The notes: generated by a model not told the origin, from the letters alone. A DNA stretch of 64,000 nucleotides from Candidatus Woesearchaeota archaeon (GCA_965205335.1 OZ242164.1:320001-384000), one strand, 5' to 3'; positions 2,131 to 61,374 are shown, counted from the first letter of the stretch. Translations and numbers: made by a program.

Positions 2131-2167
2131 TTATAAATTTAAACATCTATAAATTTAACTCAAACCT

Positions 2168-2185
2168 GGCACTGTTCATAAATTC
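2168..2185. mobile_element. Solo IS6-like terminal inverted repeat (GGCACTGTTC)
   Basis: Begins GGCACTGT, like IS26. Lies 14 bp from a minus-strand TATA box. Confidence 0.55.
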
Positions 2186-2219
2186 AAATTTAAGAATTAA
2201 CAACTCGAAAAAATAATGT

Positions 2220-2798
2220 TTAATTTTTTATACTAAGAGTAAACTCAAGTTCTTCTTTATAGAAATCAAATAATGTGTATGGCAAATTTCTACACCAAAT
2301 ATCTTCATTATCTTTTTTACAAATTCTAGGAATCTTATCTATTAATTTTTTATCTTTCACAAAACTCTCTTCAGTAATTAAAATTACTTTTTTATCTTTT
2401 GATTTCAATAGATTTGCATATGCTATTAGATATAAATCAGCATGAGTTGTTTCATATTTTTCTAAATCTGCATCAATTCGAATTTTATTATTGTCATAGA
2501 ATTTTTCATTTTCAACTATATAATATTTTTCCATAAGGTTTTGAACTTCATTAAAAACAATTAGGGATTTAATAACTGAATTCTTAACTTCTTCTTTAAA
2601 TTCATCATAATCTCTACTTCTTAATTCATCAAATACTTTATCTAATAGAATAATTTCTCCTGATTTGATTTTTTCTATTAAAAAATCTTTAAGGCCTTCA
2701 AAAATTATTTTATGTTCATGTTTTGAGTAGTATTGATGATAATATCTAAAAAAATTCATTATACTGGAAGCATCAATTAACACATTATCAAATTTCAT
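2220..2798 (-). CDS. PIN-domain protein (DUF4411-like), putative toxin
   Basis: PIN motifs LIDASS, VFDEL, ADLYLIAYA, LITEE and KIPRIC. Coupled to the upstream peptidase gene by an ATGA overlap. Confidence 0.8.
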   Translation of the reverse strand: MKFDNVLIDASSIMNFFRYYHQYYSKHEHKIIFEGLKDFLIEKIKSGEIILLDKVFDELRSRDYDEFKEEVKNSVIKSLIVFNEVQNLMEKYYIVENEKFYDNNKIRIDADLEKYETTHADLYLIAYANLLKSKDKKVILITEESFVKDKKLIDKIPRICKKDNEDIWCRNLPYTLFDFYKEELEFTLSIKN

Positions 2799-4036
2799 GA
2801 ATAAATCACCTCGTCAAATGATTTATTTTTAACTCCTAAACTTTCCATAACTCTATTTTGATTTATATTTCCTTCAAAATAATTTATCCTAACTAATTCT
2901 TTAAATAATTTTGATTCAATAGCTACTTTTTGCCCAAAATGAAGAGTTCTTCCTTCTTTTTCTGCTTGTTCCTTCTCTAAATTTCTTCGTAGTTTTAGCT
3001 CTTGTTTTTCTTGATTAATTCTTTCAATAATGTCGGAATGTATTTGATTATAATTTTGTCGTGATATTTGATTGTTGATTCTTAACCTTGTATATAACGC
3101 AAAATTACTCAAATGAGTTTCTTCTGTAATTGTATTAATTATATCTTTGTGAAATTTATTATGTTTATTAACTTCTGAAAGTTGCTTTAACTTATCATCA
3201 TATTTTCCTACTAAAAAGAAATATGAAAAATCATAACACCACCTTTCAACATCATTCATATTATTTGAATAACTCTCTCCTACTACATCATCAATTTCTT
3301 CTTGTTCTAATAAATAATGAGCAAATTCATGCATTAGAGTAAAAATTTCTCTCTTAAGATATTCTTGTTGTCTTTTAATTACAATTAAATTAGGACGCAT
3401 AAAAAAACCGTTAAAATTAGCAACAAGTTCTTCTTTTTTCTTATAATCAATAAATTCAAATACAAATACATTAAATTCCTCAATTATCCTAACTAAATTT
3501 TCAAGATAATCTCTATCACTTTTTGATGATTTTAAAGATTTACTTTTTTTTAATTTTTCTTCAACTAAACTAAATTCTTTTCTAATCTCTGTTGCAACCT
3601 CTTTAACATCGTCAGTTAAATTATATTTTTTTAATTTTCTTTCAGCTTTGAAATTAATAGAATTACAATAATTCTCTATTTCAATTTTTTTTCTTTCAAA
3701 TTCTTCAATTAATTTTACTGAGCCTAAATTTAGTTCAGCATTAAACTTATCTTTTCTAAAAAATATACTTAGTTTATCTTTTTCTGGCAAATCCCTTTTA
3801 GTGATATACCAAGTCAATCCTTTCTCAAATATCTTGTCAATTTTCTTTAAAACACTAAATTTTACTTTTCTATTATTATTAAGGACTTCTTCTAACTCTT
3901 CTAATGTTAACACAGGGTTTTTATTATCTCCTTTTAATAAATCTAAAAAATTCTCTTTTGATAACTTAAATAACTCTAAAAGATAGTTTAACCTTTTAGG
4001 ATTTAATACAAATTCCGTGCTATTGCTTAAATTCAT
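2795..4036 (-). CDS. HTH + ImmA/IrrE (Peptidase_M78) zinc metallopeptidase
   Basis: FTLMHEFAHYLL (HExxH) and a downstream ERWCYDF. The N-terminus is Xre-like helical. Confidence 0.85.
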   Translation of the reverse strand: MNLSNSTEFVLNPKRLNYLLELFKLSKENFLDLLKGDNKNPVLTLEELEEVLNNNRKVKFSVLKKIDKIFEKGLTWYITKRDLPEKDKLSIFFRKDKFNAELNLGSVKLIEEFERKKIEIENYCNSINFKAERKLKKYNLTDDVKEVATEIRKEFSLVEEKLKKSKSLKSSKSDRDYLENLVRIIEEFNVFVFEFIDYKKKEELVANFNGFFMRPNLIVIKRQQEYLKREIFTLMHEFAHYLLEQEEIDDVVGESYSNNMNDVERWCYDFSYFFLVGKYDDKLKQLSEVNKHNKFHKDIINTITEETHLSNFALYTRLRINNQISRQNYNQIHSDIIERINQEKQELKLRRNLEKEQAEKEGRTLHFGQKVAIESKLFKELVRINYFEGNINQNRVMESLGVKNKSFDEVIYS

Positions 4037-4099
4037 ACTTATATATAATTCATATAGATAAATTATTAAAACTTTGCTTTAAAAATGTTTGTTATTTAG

Positions 4100-4208
4100 G
4101 GCTCTGTCCAGAAATTGTTTTCTCCAAAATCTATGCTAACTAAATTCAATCAAAGAAAAAAATTATTCATCAAAAATTGCTCTATTTCTTGAATTTCTGG
4201 ACAAAGCC
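4100..4208. mobile_element. MITE (non-autonomous IS6-like element), 109 bp
   Basis: TIRs GGCTCTGTCCAGAAATT / AATTTCTGGACAAAGCC. The interior is an inverted homologue of 61193-61320. The flanks do not match, so there is no TSD here. Confidence 0.8.
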
Positions 4209-4217: not shown

Positions 4218-4360
4218 GGTACTGTTCAATTTTAGGGGGATAAAGATTTTATCATAATTTTTTTCCAATTAGGTTTTACATCTAATCCGCTCACTTGTGC
4301 AGGAGTAAGACCGCCTAAACCCAGATGAGGTTTAACAAAGTTATAGTAGTTCTTGAAACC
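4218..4360 (-). mobile_element. IS6-family remnant: transposase C-terminus plus terminal IR
   Basis: The minus strand reads GFKNYYNFVKPHLGLGGLTPAQVSGLDVKPNWKKIMIKSLSP*, followed by the end GGTACTGTTCAATTTTAGGGG. Homologous to 55565-55813. Confidence 0.8.
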
Positions 4361-4577
4361 AAAATTATTTAGACATACTTTGAAGGATTATAGTGCCTTT
4401 AGTGGAGAAATCAAAGAAATGTATAAAAGAACACCCAGTATTGATGAAAAAATAAAATTGATAGGTTTGAAGATGAAATTAAATAAAGAAATGTATGATC
4501 TAAACGAAAAAATAATGTTTAATTTTGAAACTTTTCCAAACTATATACAATTATATACGCTTGTAAATAAACTGTAA
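4353..4577 (+). pseudogene. 5'-truncated member of a local helical paralogue family
   Basis: The TTG start lies inside the IS remnant. EIKEMYKRTPSIDEKIKLIGLKMKL resembles motifs in the three ORFs at 4680-6305. Confidence 0.5.
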
Positions 4578-7216: not shown

Positions 7217-7303
7217 TTAAATTTAATTTTTATAAATTTCTTATATAACCTTGTATCCTTTATTGAATGGATATAATAAAAAAAACATAGAGTTCCCAAG
7301 AAC

Positions 7304-7313
7304 AATCAGAACC
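7304..7313. mobile_element. Solo IS6-like end (reverse complement GGTTCTGATT) ahead of the hsdM promoter
   Basis: Ends at 7313; TATATAAA starts at 7328, a 14-bp gap. Confidence 0.5.
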
Positions 7314-7357
7314 TTTAGTTAGAAATATATATAAATAAGCTACTAAATATCTTTTAT

Positions 7358-9079
7358 ATGAGTTCAGAGAGTGTAAATGTGTCCAAAGAAGCAGGATTTA
7401 TATGGGAGATTGCCAATGATTTGAGAGGTAATTTCAAACAATATGAGTTTCAGGACATAATTTTGCCATTAATTGTATTAAGAAGATTAGAAATCAGGCT
7501 GGAAAGGACAAGAACAGATGTAAAGAATAAACTTTCAGACAATCATTCACTTAGAAAGCTTAATGATGAGGAATTTAATAATAATGAGCAGGTTGGAGAG
7601 ATTATTTATGGTAGAATTAATTACAATAACAGTTCACAATACACTTTCAGAAAATTAATCGGGGATGATGAGAAGAATATAAAAGAGAACTTTTCTTCTT
7701 ATCTTGATGGTTATTCAGAGAATATCAAACATATTTTTGTAAATTTTGGTTTCTATGAGAAAGTAAAAGAACTTGCAAAACATAAGTTACTTTTAACTTT
7801 AATTAAAAAGTTTTCAAATCCTGAGCTTGACTTCTTATCTCCTTATGTAACATCTAATGAGAAGATGGGTTACATTTTTGAGGACTTGATTAGAAGGTTT
7901 GCAGAACAGTCCAATGAAACGGCAGGAGAGCATTTTACACCACGAGAAGTTATTCAGTTAATGGTCAGGTTGCTCGGAATTGAGGATTTTCATATAAAGG
8001 AAGGCAAGGATATTAATATATATGATGTTGCTTGCGGAACAGGTGGTATGCTTACAATGGCAGAGAAATATATTAAGGATGAATTGGGGTTAAAAAATGC
8101 AGTTAATCTTTACGGGCAGGAATTAAATCCCAAGTCTTATGCTGTATGTTATAGTGATATGCTTTTGAAGGGTGGAAATCCAACTAATATTAAGGAGGGA
8201 AATTCTTTGACTGATGAGGATAAACTTGATGGTTACAGGTTTGATTTTATGCTTTCCAATCCTCCTTTCGGGGTTTCATGGTCACAGTATGCAGATAAGA
8301 TTTTTGATAAAAAGTCAAAGAAGGTTTATATTGAGAAGTATTCAATGGGTGTTCCAAGAAGCAGTGATGGTTCTCTGCTGTTTTTGTTAAATATGATTTC
8401 CAAGATGAGAAATGAAAAGGATGGGGGTTCTGGCATTGCAATTGTTTTTAGCGGTTCTCCATTATTTTCTGGCGATGCAGGAAGCGGTGAGAGTAATATT
8501 AGAAAGTATTTGTTAGAGAATGATTTGATTGAAACTATTGTTGCACTGCCAACTAATTTGTTTTATAATACTGGTATTGGGACTTACGTCTGGATTGTAA
8601 GAAATAATAAGGCAAAAACTAAGAGAGAAGGAAAGGTTCAGTTGATTAATGCAGTTTCTTTTTATGAGAAAATGAAGAAGTCTCTTGGAGATAAGAGGCA
8701 TTTTATTTCTTCTGAGCAGATTGATAAGGTTTCTAAAACTCATAAGGAGTTTAGAGAAGGTGAGTTTTCAAAGATTTTCAGGACAACAGATTTTGGGTTT
8801 GCAAAGGTAAGTTTAACTCTTGATGATATTGATGAGAATGACAAGAGTATAAAGGTTAATGATGCTGAGAAGATTCCTCTTAATGAGAATAAGGAAGAGT
8901 ATTTGAGAAGAGAAGTTGAATTGCCATACAAGATTAAAAAGGAAGTTGTTGGATATGAGGTTAATTTCACTCAATATTTCTATAAATACGAAGAATTAAG
9001 AGGTTTAAAGAAAATAAGCAAGGAAATTCAGGACATTGAAAAAGAGAATTCAAAGTTGTTAAAAGACTTGGAGCTATAG
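7358..9079 (+). CDS. hsdM: Type I R-M methyltransferase subunit M
   Basis: GEHFTPREV, YDVACGTGGML, GQELN, NPPF and LFYNTGI motifs. Confidence 0.95.
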   Translation: MSSESVNVSKEAGFIWEIANDLRGNFKQYEFQDIILPLIVLRRLEIRLERTRTDVKNKLSDNHSLRKLNDEEFNNNEQVGEIIYGRINYNNSSQYTFRKLIGDDEKNIKENFSSYLDGYSENIKHIFVNFGFYEKVKELAKHKLLLTLIKKFSNPELDFLSPYVTSNEKMGYIFEDLIRRFAEQSNETAGEHFTPREVIQLMVRLLGIEDFHIKEGKDINIYDVACGTGGMLTMAEKYIKDELGLKNAVNLYGQELNPKSYAVCYSDMLLKGGNPTNIKEGNSLTDEDKLDGYRFDFMLSNPPFGVSWSQYADKIFDKKSKKVYIEKYSMGVPRSSDGSLLFLLNMISKMRNEKDGGSGIAIVFSGSPLFSGDAGSGESNIRKYLLENDLIETIVALPTNLFYNTGIGTYVWIVRNNKAKTKREGKVQLINAVSFYEKMKKSLGDKRHFISSEQIDKVSKTHKEFREGEFSKIFRTTDFGFAKVSLTLDDIDENDKSIKVNDAEKIPLNENKEEYLRREVELPYKIKKEVVGYEVNFTQYFYKYEELRGLKKISKEIQDIEKENSKLLKDLEL

Positions 9080-10368: not shown

Positions 10369-11568
10369 ATGAAGAAAGAACAACACTCTGAATTAATTGA
10401 ATTGATAACAGAATTATTTAAGATGTTTGAAAAATTACCAACTTCAATGGAACGTACTGATATAATTTATCTTGAACAAGGTGAATATATAACTTGGATA
10501 AATTATCAAATTAATACTTTAGATGATAGTTTTAATTTACTTCACAATAATTCATATAAATCTTCTTTTACGTTAATTAGAAGTGCCTATGAAAGTTACT
10601 GGGTTATACTATTAGCGATGCTCGGTGATAGATATTATATCAAATATATACCAAAAGAAGGAAGTAATATTCAGAAAATTCATCAGCAATACGTAAGAGA
10701 TTTTGAAGAAAATAAAAAAGAAAGAGAAGAACAGGGAATAATCAAGATTCACAACATAAAAAACAATAGTTTTAAAATTGAATACTTCGGCAGAAAAAAT
10801 CAAGAAGGAGAAATAATCCCTCACTATTATTTTTTATTTAATGAATACAATCCAGAAATTGCTTATTTGGGTTTTGAAGAAGGCTATTATGAAAGTGATA
10901 AATTATCTGAGATTCAAGATGAAATGGAGAATAGACATAAGGACTTAAATTATTATTTTAGATTTGAGAAAGGAATAAAAGAAAATTTAATATTAAATAA
11001 TTTAGTTACTGAAAAAGATTTTGAAAAAATGTTGGTTCATTATAGTTTTTTAAGTACTTGGACACACTTTTCAAAACAGTCAATAGATATAATTGAAGGA
11101 AATACATACAGAATTGAAGACTATAAACAAATTAATACTAAGTATAATTTTTATTTAACAAGGCTAAGTTTATTATACATAGGAAATCTATTATCAATGT
11201 ATTTGAAGTTGTGGATTAAATTTGGTAAAAAGCAAATTTCAGAAAAGAAATTAAAAGATTTAAAATTCGTTGAAGAATTTGAAGATTTAATTAATAAATT
11301 TGAAGAAAAAATAGATTATTTCTGGTTTATATTTAACAAACCTTCTGCTTATTTCAAATGGGAATATTGTTGTAAACAACTGTGCAAAAATATAAAATCT
11401 GCTGATAAATTAAAATTAATAGATTATAACTTAATTGAGGATAGATTAATACCATATTATAAAAATCCATTAAAATCACTGAAAGAAATGAGTCACAATA
11501 GGCATAATAGAGTTGTAGGTTATTATAGAAGTCCTTTAATTGATGATATTAATAGAGAGGGGACATAA
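10369..11568 (+). CDS. Hypothetical helical protein, possibly HEPN/DUF5677-related
   Basis: SSFTLIRSAYE and YSFLSTWTH resemble the R-s-x-x-E and Y-x-x-L-S-x-x-x-H motifs of this group. Confidence 0.5.
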   Translation: MKKEQHSELIELITELFKMFEKLPTSMERTDIIYLEQGEYITWINYQINTLDDSFNLLHNNSYKSSFTLIRSAYESYWVILLAMLGDRYYIKYIPKEGSNIQKIHQQYVRDFEENKKEREEQGIIKIHNIKNNSFKIEYFGRKNQEGEIIPHYYFLFNEYNPEIAYLGFEEGYYESDKLSEIQDEMENRHKDLNYYFRFEKGIKENLILNNLVTEKDFEKMLVHYSFLSTWTHFSKQSIDIIEGNTYRIEDYKQINTKYNFYLTRLSLLYIGNLLSMYLKLWIKFGKKQISEKKLKDLKFVEEFEDLINKFEEKIDYFWFIFNKPSAYFKWEYCCKQLCKNIKSADKLKLIDYNLIEDRLIPYYKNPLKSLKEMSHNRHNRVVGYYRSPLIDDINREGT

Positions 11569-11569
11569 G

Positions 11570-12892
11570 ATGAAAACAGATAATAAATATAAGGACAGTG
11601 GAATTGAATGGATTGGTGAAATTCCAAATCATTGGGAAGTTAAGAAGTTAAAACAATTTAGTTATTTCTATAATGGGAATGGATTTCCAGAGATTGAACA
11701 AGGAAAAACAAGTGGAGATTATCCCTTTCTTAAGGTTAGTGATATTAACAATCCAGATGAGATATATATTAGTAAAGGAAATAACTATGTTTCAAAAGAA
11801 TTAGTTTTAGAAAGAAAGTGGATAATCATTAAACCTAATTCAATACTATTTCCAAAAATAGGAGAAGCATTATTAAAAAATCATAGAAAAATCAATAGAA
11901 GAGAAGTTCTGATAGATAATAATATGATGAGTATGAATTTAAGAAAAAGTAAAATTGTTATGAGTTATTTTTTTCATATGTTTAAATATTTTGATATGAA
12001 AATTTTTATCAATATTTCATCAGTTCCATCATTAAATACACAATTATTTTATAATTATAAAATTCCTCTCCCTCCACTACCAGAACAAAAAGCAATCGCA
12101 AAATATCTTGACAATAAAACCCAACAAATTGATAAGTTAATTGAGAATACTCAAAGTCAAATTGAAGAATTAAAGGAGTATGAAAAATCCTTGATTAACA
12201 AATGCGTGACAAAAGGATTAAATGAAAATGTTAAATTAAAAGACAGCGGAATTGAATGGGTTGGAGAAATTCCAAAGCATTGGGAAATTAAGAGAATAAA
12301 AAATAATACTTATATTAAAGCAAGAATTGGTTGGCAGGGTTTAACATCAAAAGAATACTTAGAAGAAGGAGAATATTATTTAGTTACTGGAACTGATTTT
12401 AATGGTAATACTATTAAATGGGAAACTTGTCATTATGTTGAAAAAGAAAGATATGAACAAGACAAATATATTCAATTAAAACTAAGAGATATTTTAATTA
12501 CAAAAGATGGAACTATTGGAAAAGTTGCAATGATACACAAATTACCTAAAAAAGCAACATTAAATAGCGGTGTGTTTGTAATTAGACCTAAAAATGAAGC
12601 ATATATCCCAAGATTTATGTTTTGGATATTAAAATCTTTTATATTTACTTCATTTATTGATTTGATTAAAACTGGTTCTACTATTGCTCACTTATATCAA
12701 AGAGATTTTAATGAATTACATTACACACTCCCACCACTACCAGAACAAAAAGCAATCGCCCAATTTCTTGACAGTAAAACAGAAAATATTCAAAATCTAA
12801 TCAAAAACAAAGAAAAACAGATTGAATTGTATCAGGAATTAAGAAAAACTCTTGTAAATAATGCTGTAACAGGAAAGATTAAAATAATCTGA
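11570..12892 (+). CDS. hsdS: Type I R-M specificity subunit S (two TRDs)
   Basis: Duplicated conserved regions KDSGIEW(I/V)GEIP and PPLPEQKAIA; ends AVTGKIKII. Confidence 0.95.
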   Translation: MKTDNKYKDSGIEWIGEIPNHWEVKKLKQFSYFYNGNGFPEIEQGKTSGDYPFLKVSDINNPDEIYISKGNNYVSKELVLERKWIIIKPNSILFPKIGEALLKNHRKINRREVLIDNNMMSMNLRKSKIVMSYFFHMFKYFDMKIFINISSVPSLNTQLFYNYKIPLPPLPEQKAIAKYLDNKTQQIDKLIENTQSQIEELKEYEKSLINKCVTKGLNENVKLKDSGIEWVGEIPKHWEIKRIKNNTYIKARIGWQGLTSKEYLEEGEYYLVTGTDFNGNTIKWETCHYVEKERYEQDKYIQLKLRDILITKDGTIGKVAMIHKLPKKATLNSGVFVIRPKNEAYIPRFMFWILKSFIFTSFIDLIKTGSTIAHLYQRDFNELHYTLPPLPEQKAIAQFLDSKTENIQNLIKNKEKQIELYQELRKTLVNNAVTGKIKII

Positions 12893-13029
12893 CACCATCT
12901 TTATAACAACCACTTCTAAAAAAGAAGTAATTACTACAAAAAAAGAAGTAGTTTTATAGATAAAATATAACAGTAATAAAGCAGATTATACATACAAACA
13001 TATCTTATTATTAAAAATGCATAGATTAA

Positions 13030-54353: not shown

Positions 54354-55517
54354 TTATGAAATAACAACTAATTCGCCGCCTCTTATTTGCTTAAGATCAA
54401 ATTCAACAATAGGATCTCCATTCTCATCTATCGATACTGTGCCCATTGCACCTTCCCAGTTCTGCACTTTGTACAGCTCATCCTTAACACATGTACCATC
54501 CTGATCTCCACATATCGCAAGAATATCCTTTAATATGTAAGCAATATCATATGATGCCGCAAGATATGCAAATGGCACGGACTGAACGAATCCTTCTCCT
54601 TCTCTTTGATTTGCATTATTAATGAAAGCGCTTGCTTTTGGTGAATCCTTATCCACTTTAACTTCTGGATATATCGCACCTTCCAGATAATCACTGTGCA
54701 CATCTAAAACTTCATTTGCAGTTATCATTTCAGATGAATAAATTGGAAGTTCAATTCCTATCTCCTGCATTTGTTTAACAAGTAAACTTGCCTTGGGGAA
54801 TGTTTGAGTTACAGGATATATTGCTGTTACATCTGAATCCCTAATATTAGTAAGTGGAGTTCTTAAATCAGTTACTTCTGGTGCAAATCTCTCTTCAATA
54901 ACGATATCTCCACCTAATCCTGTATAAGTCTCAACAAAGACTTCCCTTAAAGATTCAACATACTCAGTAACTTCAGAAATCACAGCCATCTTCGTATGAC
55001 CGTCCTCAATAGCTCTTCTTGCAACAGCCGCTGCTCCTAGGGCATCTGAAGGATAATTCCTGAAGATATAGTCTCCTGCAAAAGTAATCTGAGTACTGCT
55101 TGAACCTGGTGATACTAATACAACCTGATTATCTTCAGCAATTGGGGCTGCTCCAAGAGTCTCATCACTGCACACTCCACCAATTATAACCTTCACTCCA
55201 TCTAGATTAATCAGTTTCTGAGCAGATTTTGCTCCTTCTGAACCATCACACTGTCCGTCCTCATAGATAACTTTTAGTTGCTTTCCATTAATTCCTCCTT
55301 GGGAATTTATTTCATCAACTGCTAACTGCAAAGACTTCTGCATAGGAATTCCATATGCAGCCCCATCTCCAGTTAATGGGAAGATTGCACCTACTTCATA
55401 AAAATCATCTCCTGCCCCTTCAACAGGTACTTCACTTGTATTTGTGTGTGCACATCCTCCAAGTAAAAGTATGAAGGAAAATAAAACCATAACTTGTAAT
55501 ATCCTTTTTTGTTTCAT
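54354..55517 (-). CDS. livK: Branched-chain amino acid ABC substrate-binding lipoprotein (type I PBP)
   Basis: Lipobox LLGGC; VGAIFPLTG, EINSQGGINGKQL and YIFRNYPSD motifs. Confidence 0.88.
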   Translation of the reverse strand: MKQKRILQVMVLFSFILLLGGCAHTNTSEVPVEGAGDDFYEVGAIFPLTGDGAAYGIPMQKSLQLAVDEINSQGGINGKQLKVIYEDGQCDGSEGAKSAQKLINLDGVKVIIGGVCSDETLGAAPIAEDNQVVLVSPGSSSTQITFAGDYIFRNYPSDALGAAAVARRAIEDGHTKMAVISEVTEYVESLREVFVETYTGLGGDIVIEERFAPEVTDLRTPLTNIRDSDVTAIYPVTQTFPKASLLVKQMQEIGIELPIYSSEMITANEVLDVHSDYLEGAIYPEVKVDKDSPKASAFINNANQREGEGFVQSVPFAYLAASYDIAYILKDILAICGDQDGTCVKDELYKVQNWEGAMGTVSIDENGDPIVEFDLKQIRGGELVVIS

Positions 55518-55564
55518 AGTAACATCTAGGGATATTGTAAGTTTTATAAATTTTTGTATTTTAG

Positions 55565-55813
55565 GGCTCTGGTCATTTTTAGGGTGTTTTTATTTTAAAT
55601 GCATTTTTCATAATTTCTTCCCAATTATCAGGAACATTTAAACCACTTGCTTGTGCTGGTGTCATACCTAAACTTAAATGTGGTTTAACAAAATTATAAT
55701 AGTTTTTGAAACCTTTATTATATATCTGAACTCCTTTAAGTGTTTTCATTCCACGCATTGACTTAGTACGGTCTTTATGTGTTCCGTGATAACGTTCTAT
55801 AATGTTATTGTTG
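55565..55813 (-). mobile_element. IS6-family remnant: transposase C-terminus plus terminal IR
   Basis: NNIIERYHGTHKDRTKSMRG...YYNFVKPHLSLGMTPAQASG. The end GGCTCTGGTCATTTTTAGGGTG lies 14 bp from the livK TATA box. Confidence 0.85.
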
Positions 55814-55817
55814 CTAT

Positions 55818-56190
55818 CTAAAAGAACTCCAACAATAGAAATTACACAAGTATTTACCGCTCCAACAAACAAAGCATAAAGGAAAGAGTTTGAAGAATCA
55901 TAAGGCAGGAAATGATGCCCGATTCCATAAAGCGTTTCTTCCATTTTCTCTTGGAAGATTAATTTCTCCACCACTGCCAAGATTTCTATCGTAAATCTCA
56001 CCATAGTTGCCAACGCTTCTTATAACATTCTGAGCAAAGCCCATTTCAAGCCCCAAAGTTTCCTATCCGAAACTGCCTTCAAATCCAAGCAAACGATCAA
56101 CTTTTCTATCTCCTGTAAGCTCACACATTGGAAGGTGTTATTTCATAAGATTCAGAGCAAGTAAGAACGCCAATGTTATGACAATATTCA
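55818..56190 (-). pseudogene. Spliced remnants of a second aapJ-aapQ copy
   Basis: 55818-55923 matches 59657-59762 (aapQ). 55925-56118 matches 60061-60254 (aapJ), and the match continues with more divergence. Confidence 0.85.
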
Positions 56191-56223
56191 TTTTTTCCCC
56201 TCCTCAGTTTTTTATTATTAACT

Positions 56224-56973
56224 TTATGTCAAAATCCGAGACAAAAACTCCTTAGTTCTTTTCTCTTTAGGATGACTAAAAAATTCTTTTGGAGGTCTTT
56301 CCTCTATTATTCTGCCTTCATCAAACATAATAATTCTATCTGCAACTTCTTTGGCAAATCCAATTTCATGAGAGACAAGAATCATGGTCATTCCAGAATT
56401 AGCCAATTCCTTCATAACATCTAACACCTCATTAATCATTTCAGGGTCCAAAGCAGAAGTTGGCTCATCAAAAAGCATTATTTTAGGTGACATAGCAAGG
56501 GAACGAGCTATGGCAACTCTCTGCTGCTGTCCTCCTGAAAGTTCGGAAGGGTATTTATCTGCTTGTTCAGAAATCCCAACTCTTTTAAGAAGTTCCTTTG
56601 CCTTCTGTTGAGCTTTATCCTGCGGTATTTTCCTTACCTTCATTGGAGCTAAGGTTATGTTCTGCATCACGGTAAGATGGGGAAATAAATTAAAAGACTG
56701 AAAAACCATTCCAACTTCTCTTCTAATGGCATCTATGTTTCTTGTATCCTGAGTTAGTTCTATTCCATCAACTATAATCTTTCCCTTTTGATATTCTTCA
56801 AGTTTGTTTATTGTTCTGATAAAAGTGGATTTTCCAGATCCTGAAGGACCCACGATAACAATTTTCTCTCCTTTCTTCACGGAAAGGTTTACTCCTTTAA
56901 GAACATGGAATGAATCATACCATTTATGAACTTCTTTGCATATTATTATCGGATTTTCAGATTCTTTTGACAT
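56224..56973 (-). CDS. aapP: Polar amino acid ABC transporter ATPase
   Basis: [33 protein letters not shown] and [11 protein letters not shown] motifs. Confidence 0.9.
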
Positions 56974-56996
56974 TAATAAAAATATGTATTAATAGT

Positions 56997-57233
56997 TTAA
57001 ATAGTTTTCGTTAATTCAATTCTTCCAAAAACTTTTTTAATTTCACTTAATTGAATTTTATCTAATTTGAAATATTTTGAAACATTTAGAATCTCCATTC
57101 CCCATGCTTTTTCCTTTTCATCTAAATCAATAATAAAATCTCCAAAATTAATACTATGATGGTAATTCATTTTTCTTTTCTTCAAGAAAAGCGAGTCACT
57201 CTTAAAATCATAATCAATTATATCATGTGCCAT
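56997..57233 (-). CDS. DUF2283-like small protein
   Basis: IDYDFKSDSLFL...IIDLDEKEKAWGMEILNVSK pattern. Confidence 0.75.
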   Translation of the reverse strand: MAHDIIDYDFKSDSLFLKKRKMNYHHSINFGDFIIDLDEKEKAWGMEILNVSKYFKLDKIQLSEIKKVFGRIELTKTI

Positions 57234-57280
57234 TATACTTACAATAACATTTGTGTATTTATAAAATTTTCAATTTTTGT

Positions 57281-57357
57281 GGTTTTGTGAGTTTTACTCA
57301 AATATTAGTTGTTTGTTTTTCATATAAAACAAAAACACCCTAAAAATGGTCAGAATC
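57281..57357. mobile_element. Collapsed IS6-like remnant with two ends
   Basis: The right end aaaaacaccctaaaaatggtcagaatc is the inverse of the 55565 end. The left end ggttttgtg is degenerate. A TATA-like box lies about 14 bp outside each end. Confidence 0.55.
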
Positions 57358-57537
57358 CATCAAAACGAAAACTAATAAAAGAATAAATATCCCAAACAAT
57401 CAAAATAAATTCTTTGGAGTTTCACCCTCCATTATATCAGGAAAGGCAGGATGGATGACTTGTTTGAGTGGTATTTTGTTTAAGCATAGTATTACATTTG
57501 TTCACGGCATTAAATCGGCAATTCTTTCTCAATTTCA

Positions 57538-58755
57538 TTAATGTGTCGCAGTGTTTCTTACTCCCGTATTTGTTTTTCTCTCAATATATCTGCTGACGTG
57601 GGAAAGTCCGTATGCGAATATCCAGAAAGTCAGGGCCAGAAAAATGAACAATTCATAAGAACTATTTAAGTATACAGGATTTCCACTAATAAATGCCCTT
57701 CCAATTCCAACCATGTCAAGCATTCCGATAACATAAACCAAATTCGTATCTTTGAAAAGTGATATAAATTGTCCTACAATTGCAGGTATTACATTTTTAA
57801 GTGCCTGAGGCAGAGATATTAAAAGTATAGTTTGCACACCAGAAAGCCCCAATGCCCTTGCAGCTTCTTGTTGCCCCGGACTTAGAGCTTGCAATCCCCC
57901 CCTTATATTCTCAGCCATATATGCCGCACTGAATAAGGTTATTATTATTGCAGCTCTGTAAAGAGAATTTAAAGGAAAATCTTCGGGAAACGCAAGAGGA
58001 ACAAGGGTTTGAGACATAAAAAGAAGAGCAATCAGAGGAACTCCCCGAAATAATTCTATAAACAAAATGCAAATTACTTTAACTAAATGCAAACTGCTTC
58101 TCCTTCCAAAAGCAAGAAGTATTCCAATTGGCAGGCAGAGAACTATTCCAGAAACGGCTAATAACAAATTCAGCATCAGCCCTCCCCAATATATTACAGA
58201 TACGGGTTCTAAGAACTTAACCCCTGAAACTCCGTGTAGCAATAGAAGAATTGCCAAAAAACATAAAACTCCAGTTAATAAAATCCCTTTAGCTTTCCTT
58301 ATTTTAAAATAAGACGCAAAGTAATAACCAAGAATCAAAGCAGGCAAATTAAGAAGCAGCAGAATTCTGATGTCAAAACCCATTTTTTCCAGACTATAAG
58401 GAAGGAAAGCAAAAGCAGCTGATGCAACTGAAAAAATTATGGCAATCTTTTTAGCAAGAGAATCTCTTGTAGAACCCCATATAAATCCAAAAAAGAAAGT
58501 TGATATTAATAACGCTGCTGCAGGTCTCCAGAAACAATTTCCACCAGAACATGCAATTTCTGTGTTATACTGTCCTATAATCAAAGTCCCTCCAAGAACT
58601 GATATGATACTCCAGTCAGCAACAAATAACAACCATCTGCCTCCAAACCACAAAGATAAGATTATCATGCTTCCAAGCAAGATCGTAAAGATTCCATTAT
58701 AAAACGAACTAAACAGATTTTCTTTAAGCCATTTGGTTATTTTTTCAAAACTCAT
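57538..58755 (-). CDS. aapM: General L-amino acid ABC transporter permease
   Basis: WLKENLFSS, WGGLMLNL, FRGVPLI, AENIRGGLQA and FKDT motifs. Confidence 0.88.
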   Translation of the reverse strand: MSFEKITKWLKENLFSSFYNGIFTILLGSMIILSLWFGGRWLLFVADWSIISVLGGTLIIGQYNTEIACSGGNCFWRPAAALLISTFFFGFIWGSTRDSLAKKIAIIFSVASAAFAFLPYSLEKMGFDIRILLLLNLPALILGYYFASYFKIRKAKGILLTGVLCFLAILLLLHGVSGVKFLEPVSVIYWGGLMLNLLLAVSGIVLCLPIGILLAFGRRSSLHLVKVICILFIELFRGVPLIALLFMSQTLVPLAFPEDFPLNSLYRAAIIITLFSAAYMAENIRGGLQALSPGQQEAARALGLSGVQTILLISLPQALKNVIPAIVGQFISLFKDTNLVYVIGMLDMVGIGRAFISGNPVYLNSSYELFIFLALTFWIFAYGLSHVSRYIERKTNTGVRNTATH

Positions 58756-58760
58756 TAGAT

Positions 58761-59984
58761 CTATCCTCCTGTGAATTTGATATGCCTGTTATAGATATTC
58801 CCTATTAGCGAATATGTCAGACTTATGACGAGGTAAGCCGCCATTATCAGTATGAATATGGAAATTGCTGGAGCGGTTTGTGTCATTGTTTTAGCTACAT
58901 TAACCAAATCAGGGTATCCAACAATTGCAGCAAGACTGCTGTTTTTTGTCAAATTCAAATATTCGCTTATGGTAGGAGGAACAATAACTCTTAAAGATTG
59001 GGGGAAGGTTATGTGCCTTAATGCTTCAAATTTAGACAACCCTAATGCTCTTGCCGCTTCCACTTGTCCTTTATTAACGGATTGTATTCCTGCTCTCACA
59101 ATTTCAGCAATAAAAGAAGAAGCGTATAATACTAACCCGATTAGCAGGGCAATTAGTCCCGCAGGGACCGTGAATCCTCCGCTAATCCTTCCAAAAGTTC
59201 CCTGAGGATACGGGACTGAAATCGATAATGGATGCTGTCCAAATAAAAAATAAAGAATAAACCATCCCGCAAGAAAAAATGATAATGACAAGATTAAGGA
59301 ATAAATCAAAGGATGATAATTTTTCCCCTTTTTTTTTGAAATTGAGGAGAAGAACTTATATGCAAAAAACAACAAAGCAAAAGTTGCCAGAACTAAGATT
59401 AGTGACAACATCCCTGCTCCAAATCCCAAAGCAGAAAACCATGGAAAAGACACTCCCGAATTACTGATGTAAACTTTGTCTGCTATCGTAAAACTTTCTT
59501 TAATTTCCGGCAATGTAAGCATAATGTAAAACCAAAAAAACAACAGAATAAGCAAAGGAACGTTTCTGAAAATTTCTATATAAACAAGCGAAGTTTTGCT
59601 TATAAGCCAATTTTTTGACAATCTGCAAACTCCTATGAAAATGCCTAAGATAGTTGCTAAAAGAACTCCAACGATAGAAATTACACTGGTATTTACCCCT
59701 CCAACAAACAAAGCATAAAGGAAAGTATTTGAAGAATCATAGGGCAGGAAATGATGCCCGATGGGAGTTTGATATGCTCTTTCCAAAAAATCAAATCCGT
59801 ACGGTATGTTTCTCTCTGCAATAGCAGTAGCAATGTTAAGAAAAAACCATGAAACAAGAACTAAAACCAAAATTCCTGAAACAATCTGTATAAACCATTT
59901 CAGGAACTTAGAATGCCTCCATAAAGGAATTCCTTGATAGGATAAACCCAATCTTATGGATTTACTTTTTTGGAGGGATGGCAT
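58761..59984 (-). CDS. aapQ: General L-amino acid ABC transporter permease
   Basis: GFDFL, EIFRNVPLL, AEIVRAGIQSV and NLTKNSSLA motifs. Confidence 0.88.
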   Translation of the reverse strand: MPSLQKSKSIRLGLSYQGIPLWRHSKFLKWFIQIVSGILVLVLVSWFFLNIATAIAERNIPYGFDFLERAYQTPIGHHFLPYDSSNTFLYALFVGGVNTSVISIVGVLLATILGIFIGVCRLSKNWLISKTSLVYIEIFRNVPLLILLFFWFYIMLTLPEIKESFTIADKVYISNSGVSFPWFSALGFGAGMLSLILVLATFALLFFAYKFFSSISKKKGKNYHPLIYSLILSLSFFLAGWFILYFLFGQHPLSISVPYPQGTFGRISGGFTVPAGLIALLIGLVLYASSFIAEIVRAGIQSVNKGQVEAARALGLSKFEALRHITFPQSLRVIVPPTISEYLNLTKNSSLAAIVGYPDLVNVAKTMTQTAPAISIFILIMAAYLVISLTYSLIGNIYNRHIKFTGG

Positions 59985-59997
59985 TTTATGAAAATGC

Positions 59998-61146
59998 TTA
60001 TCTCAGGGGAGCAGCGTAAATCTGTCCTCCTTTTGGACAATTAGTGCATGGTGCGTTTGCCCATAAAGCGTTTCTTCCATTTTCTCTTGGAAGATTAATT
60101 TCTCCACCACTGCCAAGATTCTTATCGTAAATCTCACCATAGTTGCCAACGCTTCTTATAACATTCTGAGCAAAGCCCATTTCAAGCCCCAAAGTTTCCT
60201 GCCCGAAACTTCCTTCAAATCCAAGCAAACGATCAACTTTTCTATCTCCTGTAATCTCAGCAGGCACATTGGACGATGAGATTTCGTATGCTTCTGAGTA
60301 AATAAGAACGCTCATGACAGTCTTCACAATGTCAAACCACTGTTCATCTCCATGCGGAACAACAGGTCCTAATGGCTCTTCTGATATGGTTTCAGGCAAA
60401 ATAACGTGGTCGTCCCTGTTAGTAAGGCCTGAACTAATAGCAGCCAATTGCGATCTGTCGTTTGTGTAAGCGTCACATTGTCCGCTTTCATAAGCAGCCT
60501 TCGTAGCATCGTTACTCTCAAAAGTCAAAGGAGTAATCTCTAAATTATTTTGAGCCGAAAAGTCCTCAAGGTTAAGTTCAGTTGTAGTTCCCTGAATTAC
60601 ACATACTGTTGCTCCCCCAAGCATATAAGCACTTGAAATGCCTGAATCTTTTCTTATCATAAATCCTTGTCCGTCATAGAACATTGTCTGAACATAATTT
60701 CCCCACTGAGCATCTCTTGAAGTTGTCCATGTAACTGTACGAACCAGCAGATCAACTTCTCCTGACTGGATGGTAGGACCTCTTTCAGCTGCAGTAATCA
60801 ACCTTATCTCTATTTTATTAGGATCTCCAAGAACGGCAGTAGCAACTGCTCGGCAAAGATCTATGTCAAAGCCAACGTTCGAGCCTGTGTTTTCATCAAT
60901 ATATCCAAATCCTGAAACGTCATTACGACTTGCACAAATAACTTTTCCTCTTTCCCTCACTTTTTCAAGACGGCTCATTTCATTACTACTTTCTTGAGCA
61001 TAATTTTTCTTATCTTCATTAACCGAATTTACATTCCCTGAATCCCCAACAGGTACTTCACTTGTATTTGTTTGGTGTGCACATCCCCCAAGTAAAAGTA
61101 TGAAGGAAAACAAAGCCAAAACCCATAGTATTCTTTTTCGTTCCAT
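59998..61146 (-). CDS. aapJ: General L-amino acid ABC substrate-binding lipoprotein (type II PBP)
   Basis: GFDIDLCRAVA, TWTTSRD, FYDGQGF, ISEEPLGP and VGNYGEIY motifs; lipobox LLGGC. Confidence 0.9.
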   Translation of the reverse strand: MERKRILWVLALFSFILLLGGCAHQTNTSEVPVGDSGNVNSVNEDKKNYAQESSNEMSRLEKVRERGKVICASRNDVSGFGYIDENTGSNVGFDIDLCRAVATAVLGDPNKIEIRLITAAERGPTIQSGEVDLLVRTVTWTTSRDAQWGNYVQTMFYDGQGFMIRKDSGISSAYMLGGATVCVIQGTTTELNLEDFSAQNNLEITPLTFESNDATKAAYESGQCDAYTNDRSQLAAISSGLTNRDDHVILPETISEEPLGPVVPHGDEQWFDIVKTVMSVLIYSEAYEISSSNVPAEITGDRKVDRLLGFEGSFGQETLGLEMGFAQNVIRSVGNYGEIYDKNLGSGGEINLPRENGRNALWANAPCTNCPKGGQIYAAPLR

Positions 61147-61192
61147 TGTAAATTCTGTGATACTACAAGTTTTATAAATTTTTGTATTTCAG

Positions 61193-61320
61193 GGCTCTGT
61201 CCGGAAATTCAAGAGAACTTAAAATATTGTATCAATAAAGCAACTTTTGACGAATAATTTTTTTCTTTGATTGAATATAGTTAGCATAGATTTTGGAAAA
61301 AGCAATTTCCGGACAGAGCC
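61193..61320. mobile_element. Intact 128-bp MITE with perfect 17-bp TIRs and an 8-bp TSD
   Basis: TIRs GGCTCTGTCCGGAAATT / AATTTCCGGACAGAGCC. TSD TATTTCAG at 61185-61192 and 61321-61328. Confidence 0.92.
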
Positions 61321-61374
61321 TATTTCAGAATACTATAACAAACAACAATCATTATAATGATTTTAGGTATAAAA

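Follow-up and report, generated by a model that had tools for sequence, protein, structure and literature searches.

Transposon-like ends repeatedly lie 14 bp from a TATA box facing away from them in a stretch of 64,000 nucleotides from a Candidatus Woesearchaeota archaeon (the window), which raises the question of whether this spacing is a rule of insertion and, if so, what is read at the target. The window is part of a 1.2-Mb woesearchaeotal (DPANN) genome with 31% GC, which is compact, ORFs of at least 120 codons occupying 80% of it, and encodes one TBP, one TFB and two histone-fold genes.

In order to evaluate the spacing genome-wide, sites matching the TIR pattern GG[CT][ACT]CTG[TG] were collected (291 sites), and the distance from each to a TATA box was tallied between 0 and 40 bp. 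An exact TTTATAAA was found 14 bp outside the TIR-like site in 41 of the 291 cases; apart from these, there was a single site at each of 12, 13, 30 and 31 bp, the remaining distances being empty. When one mismatch was tolerated in the box, 66 sites fell at 14 bp, versus 0 to 5 at the other distances, whereas three control motifs (59, 180 and 180 sites) gave 0, 0 and 1 at 14 bp. The distance histogram proposed in an earlier note on this DNA thus shows a sharp peak, although the looser 8-mer pattern given there matches the genome 428 times against 322 expected from composition, and is too loose to be specific alone. For the longer end GGYHCTGTCC, a box with at most one mismatch is present at 14 bp in 47 of 94 cases, which is the ceiling if only one of the two ends of an element faces the box. 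Seen from the promoters, an element end lies exactly at -14 in 35 of 414 modelled promoters, about one in twelve, while the other offsets between 6 and 30 contribute one case at 15 and one at 29. The element ends at 14 bp are real, base-pair-precise, promoter-anchored insertions.

The clearest case within the window is a 128-bp MITE at 61193-61320 (plus strand; TIR GGCTCTGTCCGGAAATT), one of 37 full-length copies in the genome. It is flanked by the perfect 8-bp duplication TATTTCAG, already noted before, whose distal copy occupies 61321-61328 and whose proximal copy, 61185-61192, ends 6 bp from the TATA box TTTATAAA at 61171-61178 (minus strand); the leaderless gene 59998-61146 (minus strand) has its ATG 24 nt beyond the box. 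A paralogous promoter and gene 5' end are found at 55543-55550 (TTTATAAA, minus strand), with the ATG of gene 54354-55517 (minus strand) 25 nt further on; the homology of this pair (86% identity) covers the promoter as well as ~110 bp at the start of the gene, and ends at the element junction. Here the neighbour is an IS6-like remnant (55565-56013, minus strand), whose right end GGCTCTGGTCATTTTTAGGG is 14 bp from the box and does abut a transposase tail: ORF 55579-56013 (minus strand; PF13610/PF13683) is a C-terminal fragment, 85% identical to residues 279-353 of the full transposase. A 77-bp two-ended remnant at 57281-57357, with an end of the IS6-like right-end type at 57357, is flanked on both sides by TATA-like boxes, TTTATAAA(A) at 57258-57266 and CTAATAAA at 57372-57379.

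The same distance recurs at more degenerate copies. A MITE-like element at 4100-4208 (plus strand), matching MITE positions 1-88 and devoid of a target duplication, is 14 bp from the TATA-like box TTTAAAAA (4078-4085, minus strand), beyond which lies gene 2795-4036; stacked behind it, 8-9 bp from its end, is the IS6-like remnant GGTACTGTTCAATTTTAGGGGG at 4218-4372 (minus strand), with a transposase tail at 4241-4372. Four further plus-strand fragments have the box at lower coordinates: an IS5-like right-end fragment beginning GGCACTGTTCATAAATTCAAATTT (2168-2206; box TCTATAAA, 2146-2153), an element end GGTTCTGGTGTAAAATAG with an IS26-like TIR (13030-13060; box TTATTAAA, 13008-13015, with 2 mismatches to the consensus), an IS5-like left-end remnant GGCTCTATCCTGAAATTAATTTTTTT (18953-18990; box CTTATAAA, 18931-18938) and a MITE-like end GGCTCTGTGCGGAGATTC (27864-27900; box TTTATATA, 27842-27849). 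Four others, also on the plus strand, end 14 bp before the box: an end in CAATCAGAACC (7295-7313; box TATATAAA, 7328-7335, with the hsdM ATG at 7358), a MITE fragment ending in GGACAAAGTC (27249-27294; box CTTATAAA, 27309-27316), and two degenerate ends, in TTACAGAATC (32655-32677; box TATATAAA, 32692-32699, with the ATG of a 399-aa ORF at 32721) and in TGACAGAATC (33935-33959; box TATATAAA, 33974-33981). All 14 coordinate pairs of the earlier note show the pattern that it described, and its two exceptions disappear: the 13-bp case at 27864 becomes 14 with the box read as TTTATATA, and the 15-bp case at 14168 becomes 14 because the TIR of this IS5-like end (14167-14200, plus strand; box ATTATAAA, 14145-14152) begins one base earlier, with a one-base insertion (GaGCACTGTCC).

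The ends were assigned to two classes of elements. The dominant one consists of the 128-bp MITE and a 1030-bp IS sharing the same TIR, GGCTCTGTCCGAAAATT. The transposase of the latter matches PF01609 (DDE_Tnp_1), a domain found 9 times in the genome, at 78 bits against a cut-off of 23; among NCBIfam models, this transposase fits the IS5 family NF033579 best, at 109 bits, below the NCBI cut-off of 140. IS5-family elements of the IS903/ISH1-like groups carry a GGC-type TIR and produce 8- or 9-bp duplications; both features are found in the 1030-bp IS and the MITE. Perfect 8-bp duplications surround 4 of the 5 full-length IS copies and 24 of the 37 MITE copies. The MITE, a TIR-bounded, non-coding element with target duplications, is a non-autonomous derivative of the IS5-like IS. 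Contigs of the source sample break off at the MITE, whose word depth exceeds that of the adjacent DNA ~40-fold (~188 vs ~5, run X1). The 14-bp rule is followed by 33 of the 37 MITE copies and by all 5 full-length IS copies, including three that are 99.9-100% identical; among the youngest MITE copies (at least 98.4% identity), 9 out of 10 follow it. A random intergenic 8-mer has a probability of 0.013 of having such a box at that offset, so that the chance of at least 33 of 37 copies having one is 2.5e-58, a figure to be read with the copies not being all independent.

The second, smaller class, under the same rule, is formed by IS6-like elements (PF13610). The label "IS6-like", originally given to all ends, therefore holds for this class, while most ends belong to the IS5-like IS (PF01609) and its MITE. 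The transposase P0001 matches PF13610, the DDE domain of the IS240/IS6 type, at 77 bits against a cut-off of 27, and the NCBIfam IS6 model NF033587 at 120.9 bits, slightly below the cut-off of 125; its homologues are named IS6 family transposases in their sources, and its best plasmid matches are bacterial IS6 (ISCpe7; 33% identity over residues 123-340). Its N-terminus carries a SWIM domain (PF04434, residues 47-72) and a zinc ribbon (C78, C81, C104, C107), conserved in 79 homologues. In the genome of the window, 14 bp is the distance for 6 of 32 IS6-like ends, and the only others between 0 and 30 are single ends at 13 and 15. A search of this genome for a complete copy, with TIRs on both sides of a transposase gene, found none; a recognisable left TIR is missing from all three of its IS6-like transposase genes. 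Among four TIR-bounded elements in other genomes, three (L116, L114 and L142) have one end 14 bp away from a TATA-like box, and the fourth, L134, has boxes at 13 and 11 bp. Their TIRs begin with GG, and the duplications are of ~8 bp in L114 and of 9 bp in L116 and L142. Two are longer than the ~700-900 bp, single-ORF format of IS6, L116 being 2416 bp and L114 ~2590 bp long, with extra unrelated ORFs; L134 and L142 are short forms of 943-945 bp.

The 14 bp are made of an 8-bp target duplication plus 6 bp. Counting positions upstream of the TATA box, the duplicated 8 bp correspond to -14 to -7, next to the BRE on its upstream side. In the 24 MITE copies with a perfect duplication, the duplication is placed on the way from the element to the box, which 22 of these copies have; the box is therefore target DNA, outside the element. 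Of 67 flanks, 64 are non-redundant, the copies not being all independent, and these 64 are unrelated in sequence, in agreement with the previous remark that spacers differ apart from homologous pairs. No extra conserved position or sequence preference is seen in the targeted 8-mer (64 non-redundant sites), and the view that position relative to the TATA box is read, and not the spacer sequence, is borne out.

The boxes are true promoters of leaderless genes. The ATG of ORFs of at least 100 codons peaks 21-22 nt past TTTATAAA (57 and 44, versus a background of 0-7). An outward ORF starts 18-31 nt beyond 37 of the 64 non-redundant targeted boxes. The layout of BRE, TATA box and leaderless start, ~22 nt after the box, is intact and faces away from the element, in line with the claim that promoters are outward-facing and spared. 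From -10 to +13 the base profile of the targets equals the genome promoter model, column by column. Polarity is marked as well: in 61 of 64 sites, it is the element side that carries the A at -3 of the BRE. At intergenic TATA-like boxes lacking an ORF on either side, an element is present on 26 of 801 sides with A(-3), versus 2 of 1209 without it, and none of 479 sides between a box and its ORF contains an element. The element is always on the BRE, upstream, side of the box. Exact TTTATAAA is commoner in targeted promoters (20 of 35) than in the others (122 of 379; p = 0.005).

Later insertions at a promoter reuse the same 8-mer and push older elements outward. Among 20 pairs of elements with outward-facing ends within 0-40 bp, 9 are 8-9 bp apart. 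At genome positions 664537-665624, the 8-mer GTGTTCAA occurs four times, around a MITE, an 815-bp element and a second MITE. New copies use the same 8-mer despite 100-800 bp of dispensable older element immediately upstream.

Matches to the promoter-spacing pattern were found in 105 of 401 genomes of the order; among the 150 matches listed, 85 have a gap of 15 and 20 a gap of 14. The gap of 15 accompanies 9-bp duplications, i.e. 6 + 9. Related MITEs with 9-bp duplications 15 bp from TATA occur in other families of the order; in other genera, 8 of 16 such duplications are perfect and 3 more have one mismatch. Two full-length IS6-like elements with 9-bp duplications show 5 + 9 instead of 6 + 9, and the proximal edge is thus not strictly constant.

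How the position is chosen was considered in the light of these data. The transpososome would capture target DNA at the upstream edge of a promoter occupied by TFB and TBP, either by contact with these factors or through the DNA deformation or accessibility that they create; this would hold promoter-proximal strand transfer at 6 bp from the TATA box, with distal strand transfer 8 or 9 bp further out, depending on the stagger of the enzyme. We favour this model, to which we assign about an even chance, over direct reading of the BRE and TATA box, which we regard as a possible, less probable explanation. In the latter, each transposase, or a transpososome subunit, would itself recognise the sequence or shape of the BRE/TATA, gene-side insertions being removed by selection. 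Direct reading fits a signal that is a defined motif (A at -3, NN, TTTATAAA) at a fixed distance, and the over-representation of exact consensus boxes; the SWIM and zinc-ribbon modules of the IS6-like transposases could, from their sequence, bind DNA. IS903 and other DDE transposases do read several bp flanking the duplication, and direct DNA recognition is used by TnsD of Tn7 and by REP-targeting ISs. It has to explain, on the other hand, why PF01609 and PF13610 enzymes, unrelated and of different domain make-up, choose the same position, why a short IS6-like form without SWIM (L142, one clear case) also lies 14 bp from a TATA-like box, and why the target profile shows nothing beyond the promoter model. 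By eye, no stretch resembling a TATA box is seen in the TIRs at the corresponding distance, which makes mimicry of the inverted repeats unlikely. Because two unrelated transposases converge and a BRE of the correct polarity is needed, docking on the factors gains some weight. Yet direct recognition of one motif could have arisen separately in the two families; cross-mobilisation between them is conceivable, given the TIR tip GGYTCTGT that they have in common; and the match of target and promoter profiles, like the empty interval between box and gene, could stem from selection after a simpler preference at the DNA level. Bound TFB might even hinder the capture that we favour, since proximal strand transfer at -7/-6, as deduced from the promoter model and known structures, would fall at the edge of the BRE (-7 to -3).

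Histones or other nucleoid proteins could cover the DNA, leave a short free stretch upstream of the promoter complex and funnel any DDE transposase into it, in what is a passive variant of the promoter-complex model. The two histone-fold genes, the site common to unrelated transposases and the absence of preference in the 8-mer are in keeping with this, which is nevertheless improbable, as single-base precision in ~90% of the copies is hard to obtain from nucleosome-like positioning alone. Selection acting on near-random insertions, with survivors sparing genes and promoters, or with copies at -14 kept as an upstream regulatory module, would suit so compact a genome and yield the 0 of 479 occupied box-gene sides. 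It predicts a broad range of distances of 14 bp or more, against the observed spike (35 promoters at 14, 2 at other offsets between 6 and 30), the reuse of one 8-mer next to dispensable DNA, the obedience of the youngest MITE and IS copies and the chance probability given above, and is very unlikely. Another reading makes box and spacer part of the mobile element, or takes the short ends for transcription-factor sites; it could appeal to the GG..CTG motif, which in 35 of 414 promoters has a constant position relative to the promoter. It is refuted by the duplications between element and box and by the completeness of the elements: the ends are true transposon termini, bounding 37 complete MITE copies and 5 IS copies with a transposase gene, their flanks are unrelated, and the sample contigs break at the MITE with the excess of depth already described.

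Returning to capture at the occupied promoter, it is about evenly poised whether archaeal DDE transposons of two unrelated families would use it as a landing pad, as a prokaryotic counterpart of Ty3/TFIIIB. Such a landing pad, which we hold to be as probable as its opposite, would account for insertion at ~-44 from the transcription start, the sparing of genes, stacking, and the retention of promoters by genes upon recombination. The last point touches on the proposal that genes move as promoter-bearing cassettes. Flanks are unrelated (at least 4 mismatches in the 8-mer) in 12 of 37 MITE copies, which, being of the IS5-like class, would bear only indirectly on the cointegrate-forming replicative transposition of IS6. 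Another 3 MITE copies lack a duplication and lie between two promoters that point away from them, the outcome to be expected if copies next to promoters recombine or undergo replicative rearrangement with one another. One contig of run X3 joins 55571 to 61372. These observations lend partial support to cassette movement; that it built the island may be supposed.

A literature search for promoter- or TATA-anchored insertion of prokaryotic ISs found no description, as the earlier note had anticipated. To our knowledge, only eukaryotic retroelements transpose site-selectively beside promoters by way of the basal transcription machinery, and target choice of prokaryotic ISs has been described as sequence-, structure- or repeat-directed. 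Yeast Ty3 integrates at the transcription start of RNA polymerase III promoters via TFIIIB (TBP and Brf1), and archaeal TFB is a homologue of TFIIB/Brf1. The two systems have in common a fixed insertion position relative to a promoter element of the TBP/TFIIB-family type, known here from sequence, spared genes and repeated hits on the same promoters; Ty3 is an LTR retrotransposon with a retroviral-type integrase, whereas DDE ISs and MITEs insert here upstream of the BRE, in an archaeon, with a presumed dependence on the factors. Dictyostelium TRE5-A and others target tRNA genes, and fission yeast Tf1 targets RNA polymerase II promoters. In these compact genomes too, unrelated elements converge on promoter-proximal safe sites, although they are eukaryotic retroelements, tethered by proteins, with distances less exact than the archaeal single-base rule. 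Tn7, through TnsD at attTn7, and REP-targeting ISs (IS1397, IS110-family members, ISPpu9/REP) are prokaryotic elements that insert, without harm, into a defined site set off by a constant distance from a DNA feature that is recognised. In each case the target is a single site or repeat family, read directly by a dedicated protein or RNA, whereas a whole functional class of sites is used here. In IS903, duplications are of 9 bp, the ends are of the GGC type and some flanks are preferred over others. The TIR GGCTCTGTCC resembles IS903-type ends, and PF01609 and the 9-bp duplications of relatives agree with this; the one-sided BRE/TATA anchor differs, a symmetric flank pattern being absent. The parts of the IS6/IS26 review that were consulted (PMC7986276) describe elements of ~700-900 bp with a single ORF, and effects on neighbouring promoters, including hybrid -35/-10 promoters. 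The archaeal IS6-like elements share with those in the consulted parts (PMC7986276) an IS240-type DDE transposase, TIRs starting with GG, a tendency to rearrange DNA and, in L114, duplications of ~8 bp, and these parts report no promoter- or TATA-directed target choice. The archaeal elements differ by the N-terminal SWIM and zinc ribbon and, in some cases, by a length of 2.4-2.6 kb with passenger ORFs.

A single-base BRE/TATA rule, followed by two transposase families in many families of an archaeal order and touching about one promoter in twelve, would be new. With it, the ability of transposases to read the archaeal initiation complex would become open to testing, and it would be understandable that dozens of active elements are tolerated in DPANN genomes, very small and gene-dense as these are. 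Promoters and their polarity could be mapped from sequence only in uncultured archaea. If the model is true, element junctions in uncultured DPANN archaea would be a natural footprint that marks, to the base, where the initiation complex ends on its upstream side. The rule also suggests a mechanism for reshuffling genes together with their own promoters, and might serve archaeal genetics as a natural "safe-harbour" insertion tool.

The distances between element ends and TATA-like boxes were collected over the whole genome, and the resulting histogram, called for in the earlier note, shows a very sharp peak at 14 bp. The degenerate 8-mer terminal inverted repeat (TIR) proposed there is uninformative by itself (428 matches against 322 expected). 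An exact TTTATAAA ends 14 bp outside the element at 41 of the 291 GG[CT][ACT]CTG[TG] sites of the genome; for the same sites, exact copies occur once each at 12, 13, 30 and 31 bp, and at no other distance between 0 and 40 bp. When one mismatch in TTTATAAA is allowed, 66 sites are found at 14 bp and 0 to 5 at each other distance, while control motifs gave 0, 0 and 1 sites at 14 bp.

The cleanest data set is provided by the 128-bp MITE, present in 37 full-length copies. In 33 of them, one or both ends lie exactly 14 bp from a box with at most one mismatch (right end 18, left end 12, both ends 3, neither 4). Perfect 8-bp duplications flank 24 copies, and 22 of these have the box. Since the probability of a box at that offset from a random intergenic 8-mer is 0.0129, the chance of obtaining at least 33 of 37 is 2.5e-58; for non-redundant flanks, the count is 64 of 67. 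The 14 bp correspond to the 8-bp target duplication beside the element, plus 6 further bases to the box. As the duplication sits between element and box, the box is outside the mobile unit.

The genome, a single contig of 1,199,749 bases with 30.9% G+C, contains 411 copies of TTTATAAA. ATGs opening ORFs of at least 100 codons peak 21 and 22 nt past this sequence (57 and 44, against a background of 0 to 7). With an ATG at this distance from the box, most transcripts would be leaderless, and the spacing would be that of leaderless archaeal transcripts, judging from known archaeal promoters. The upstream profile of the genome shows no evident Shine-Dalgarno signal. A promoter model, trained on the regions upstream of 892 ORFs of at least 120 codons (a crude ORF set, not an annotation), found 414 promoters, in which a BRE (V-R-A-A-A at -7 to -3) precedes TTTATAAA with two free positions in between; 142 of them have an exact TTTATAAA. 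An element ends exactly at -14 in 35 of the 414; the other offsets between 6 and 30 hold one end at 15 and one at 29. About one in twelve modelled promoters thus bears an element at -14.

Because TTTATAAA is palindromic, direction must come from the BRE. Of the 64 non-redundant targeted sites, 61 have an A at BRE position -3, together with the better BRE score, on the element side. Between -10 and +13, base frequencies at the targets agree, column for column, with the general promoter model, and the 8-mer has no extra conserved position. An ORF of at least 60 codons starts 18-31 nt past the box at 37 of the 64 targeted sites; among the five apparent exceptions are sites having an ATG at 21-23 nt.

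All intergenic TATA-like boxes were split by side, presence of A(-3) and presence of an ORF. Elements are found at 37 of 406 upstream sides with both A(-3) and an ORF, and at 1 of 107 with an ORF and no A(-3). Where there is no ORF either way, an element is borne by 26 of the 801 sides having A(-3) and by 2 of the 1209 lacking it, and none of the 479 sides between a box and its own ORF bears an element. Since the rates differ by A(-3) and by side, the box alone is insufficient, and a correctly oriented BRE is part of the target. The consensus box is exact in 20 of 35 targeted promoters versus 122 of 379 others (p = 0.005). Only one targeted box is near a tRNA gene, 45 nt away, a single case that is uninformative about tRNA promoters.

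The elements had been described as IS6-like in the earlier note. IS6-like PF13610 genes do exist and obey the rule, but the TIR of the MITE belongs to an IS5-like IS. The 128-bp element has the characters of a MITE, and shares the TIR GGCTCTGTCCGAAAATT with a 1030-bp IS encoding a 304-residue PF01609 transposase, as at genome 819942-820856 on the minus strand; this IS is IS5-like by Pfam, but its best NCBIfam match, the IS5 family, is below the curated cut-off. It has five full-length copies, of which three are 99.9-100% identical. At each of the five a box stands 14 bp from one end, and perfect 8-bp duplications flank four. As partners of the MITE, IS1595 was rejected, PF12762 having no match in the genome, and so was ISL3, the only PF01610 match being weak and inside the IS6-like gene. 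GGYHCTGTCC ends have a box at 14 bp in 47 of 94 cases, which is the maximum if one end per element faces a promoter. The 32 IS6-like ends have it at 14 bp in 6 cases, with one each at 13 and 15 bp and none elsewhere between 0 and 30 bp.

The intact IS6-like transposase (355 residues, genome 37660-38724) carries a SWIM finger and a zinc ribbon at its N-terminus; the other PF13610 genes are two damaged copies and two tails, the tails being inside the window. No left TIR was recognisable for any of the three IS6-like transposase genes of the genome. The only intact one has a right TIR 14 bp past the stop codon and a host-like divergent promoter upstream, and may be an immobilised transposase source. 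In the copy at 440966-442018 an in-frame TGA is present and the frame continues into downstream sequence, and the copy at 15883-16584 lacks the N-terminus. The predicted structure of the transposase (pLDDT 86.6) was compared with the PDB by Foldseek; every hit was a DDE transposase or integrase fold (ISCth4 and retroviral intasomes), and none was informative on the N-terminal modules. A tblastn search of plasmids returned bacterial IS6 elements only, with no cultured archaeal example, and a search of genome contigs for related loci, with the transposase as query, found no relative.

Four TIR-bounded IS6-like elements could be delimited in other genomes. L116 (2416 bp, 9-bp duplication) has TATATAAA 14 bp from its left end, and L114 (about 2590 bp) has TTTTTAAA 14 bp from its right end. 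L142, a short form of 943 bp with no SWIM domain, has a 9-bp duplication, TTTAAATA 14 bp from its left end, and a further IS end abutting its other side. L134 (945 bp) has boxes at 13 and 11 bp and no duplication. As IS5-like and IS6-like elements are both found at 14 bp, two unrelated DDE families obey the rule. The elements are IS6-like in their catalytic domain, the long forms departing from IS6 in size and organisation. The full-length elements of 2.4-2.6 kb, L114 (genome G393) and L116 (genome G045), each have an additional ORF, about 175-370 residues long, preceding the transposase gene on its upstream side; these ORFs are unrelated between the two loci. A conserved helper gene was not found in this position: over 14 loci, no pair of upstream ORFs is similar at E <=1e-5.

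Within the window, element end, 14 bases and TATA-like octamer were recovered at all 14 coordinate pairs listed in the earlier note. Two of these had been read as 13 and 15 bp, and on re-reading they are 14 as well: the box of the site at 27864 is TTTATATA at 27842-27849, and at the site at 14168 the TIR begins at 14167, with a one-base insertion. That the ends are real termini is borne out by the MITE at 61193-61320, duplicated TATTTCAG being present on either flank, and by the end at 55565, which abuts a transposase C-terminus. The promoters at 55543 and 61171 are paralogous (86% identity, extending from the promoter to ~110 bp into the gene) and bear different elements at the same position, which fits independent hits.

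One TBP gene, one TFB gene and two histone-fold genes are present in the genome. The closest public relatives of the TFB (87-94% identity) are in MAGs labelled Candidatus Woesearchaeota or Nanoarchaeia, so the host belongs to the Woesearchaeales among the DPANN archaea. Of the window, positions 320001-384000 of the contig, the first half is occupied by a defence island (2200-34000), with two type I restriction-modification sets, GmrSD, Schlafen/AlbA_2 and SocA/Panacea genes, and its intergenic positions hold element ends. It includes HsdM (7358-9079), HsdS (11540-12892), SocA/Panacea (13467-13997), HsdR (14363-17248), GmrSD (19076-21181), a C-terminal HsdR fragment (27932-28777), Schlafen/AlbA_2 (29564-30877) and a second HsdM (30888-32402). 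An inverted repeat of about 400 nt (26651-27051 and 30891-31292; 290 nt at 96% and 114 nt at 89% identity) brackets ~3.8-4 kb, including a portion of the second hsdM gene; the segment may be invertible, or a gene end may have been duplicated. The second half contains transporter operons and, at 35289-50825 on the plus strand, a single ORF of 5178 residues with ~13-15 tandem units of 330 bp (110 residues), some 95% identical to each other. Its product is probably a giant surface protein, a kind common among DPANN archaea. Tandem repeats of 75 bp, 75-78% identical, are located at 63673-63972, in an ORF running past the window end.

In several MITE copies the end of an older element abuts the duplicated 8-mer on the side away from the promoter, and in 9 of 20 pairs within 0-40 bp the outward ends of two elements are separated by 8 or 9 bp. 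The succession at genome 664537-665624 reads TATA, 6 bp, GTGTTCAA, MITE, GTGTTCAA, 815-bp element, GTGTTCAA, MITE, GTGTTCAA. The 815-bp element (664673-665487, locus L182) has IS6-like TIRs and a 196-residue MORN-repeat ORF, with no transposase; a MITE stands 8 bp off each end, and the same 8-mer occurs four times. This order is explained by three successive insertions into the promoter-adjacent 8-mer, which also account for one of the four box-less MITE copies; a second (578491) is in tandem behind a copy having the box. Stacks on one 8-mer thus indicate that new insertions find the same 8 bp even with a transposon upstream. At five places (genome flanks 112469, 896160, 990993, 173445 and 95684), a MITE or IS end is separated by exactly 8 nt from a conserved stretch ending in ...TTAACAACTC. 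This stretch probably represents the end of another element family (GAGTTGTTAA...), stacked at the same promoters.

A pattern made of TTTATAAA, a gap of 6-24 and GGYTCTGT occurs in 12 of 41 relatives; over the whole order it occurs in 105 of 401 genomes, which include the unpublished G331, G261 and G319. Order-wide, 270 matches were found, against 34 for the reversed control pattern (control total counted by hand). Gaps were counted by hand over the 150 of the 270 matches that were listed, which do not include the genome of the window: among these, gap 15 occurs 85 times, 14 20 times, 13 8 times, 16 7 times, 6 6 times and each other gap 1-3 times, G331 and G261 providing one match each (gaps 12 and 6). 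At 20 loci in five genomes of other families, MITEs of 59-297 bp have ends GGCTCTGTCC or GGCTCTGTAG, and the gap is 15 in 17. At the 16 loci with both ends, the 9-bp duplication is perfect in 8 and has a single mismatch in a further 3. The box is 6 bp from the duplication for both the 8- and the 9-bp types of the MITE family, so the promoter-proximal cut is the fixed one. No IS6-like transposase homologue was detected in these five genomes by the query used; distant PF01609 relatives are present in three, one of them beside a pattern match. IS6-like homologues are found in 61 of 401 genomes of the order, a tally including the unpublished G225 and G150 (loci L129 and L136), and public ones are labelled Nanoarchaeia, DPANN, Bathyarchaeia and Methanomethylicaceae. 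Alignments A1-A3 include none of the five unpublished genomes, and no individual claim depends on them.

In independent reads, contigs break at the MITE in three runs of one sample and in one run of another study, and word depth is ~188 at the MITE against ~5 in the flanks. The consensus of the contig tails past both MITE ends has TTTATAAA after 14 bases, also in the run of the other study, with an agreement of 0.56-0.77. No joint skipping the MITE was found in the Logan contigs, which break at it. A genus-wide DNA search with window 60400-62200 found no alignable orthologous empty site, only the right-hand gene being matched in the relatives, at ~66-72% identity. Among the data sets listed as containing window 59000-63000 there was no RNA run.

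A promoter carried by the elements and factor sites unrelated to transposons are both excluded by the duplications and the complete elements. Mimicry by the inverted repeats was discarded upon inspection by eye, no TATA-like stretch being present in the TIRs at a matching distance. In the reading to which we would grant an even chance, the transpososome would capture DNA at the upstream edge of the promoter while TFB and TBP are bound, either by contact with them or through the deformation or accessibility that they create. This reading is favoured because two unrelated enzymes of different domain make-up converge on one position, the BRE must be correctly oriented, the targets look just like ordinary promoters with no further sequence preference, and consensus boxes are preferred (20/35 versus 122/379).

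Each transposase might instead read the BRE/TATA DNA by itself, with gene-side insertions purged by selection. In its favour, what marks a target is a DNA motif whose distance is fixed, the IS6-like enzyme possesses additional zinc modules, and the proximal cut (at -7/-6) reaches the BRE, where TFB, once bound, might obstruct; we regard this reading as a serious, if somewhat improbable, explanation. A passive effect of chromatin, with which the two histone-fold genes would agree, appears very unlikely. Selection alone is hardly tenable, as a one-base spike is beyond its reach, stacking behind dispensable DNA is left unexplained, and 9 of the 10 youngest MITE copies (>=98.4% identity) already obey the rule. 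The predicted complex of TBP, the TFB core (residues 100-317) and the full IS6-like transposase, with alignments for each, scored 0.00 and was counted for neither side.

TFIIIB contains TBP and the TFIIB relative Brf1, and Ty3 integrates through TFIIIB. For promoter-complex capture, this is the nearest analogue in working mode, other tRNA-gene-targeting retroelements also being close; the nearest prokaryotic cases are Tn7 at attTn7 and the REP-targeting ISs. Hybrid promoters are described in the consulted portion of an IS6 review, with no promoter-directed target choice (PMC7986276). In Pyrococcus furiosus, antisense transcription starts are reported, in the sections consulted, to cluster near IS elements (PMC6640164), which may be related to promoter-anchored insertion. 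The earlier note knew of no precedent among prokaryotic ISs, and the literature search agrees: no report of BRE/TATA-anchored insertion was found by full-text searches, nor in the consulted portions of PMC7986276, PMC6640164 and PMC7002104. Site-selective transposition beside promoters is known; it is seen here for the first time for prokaryotic insertion sequences.

The earlier note also envisaged genes moving as promoter-containing cassettes. One contig of run X3 (depth 3.8) joins 55571 to 61372 with 22 other letters in between, skipping 5.8 kb, and may represent a structural variant in the population, between two element-adjacent promoters. Among the 37 MITE copies, 12 have unrelated flanks and 3 have an outward promoter on either side and no duplication, as exchanges between promoter-adjacent copies would produce. 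The cassette idea is upheld to this extent; that such exchanges assembled the island of the window is plausible. If they did occur, no gene would be parted from its own promoter.
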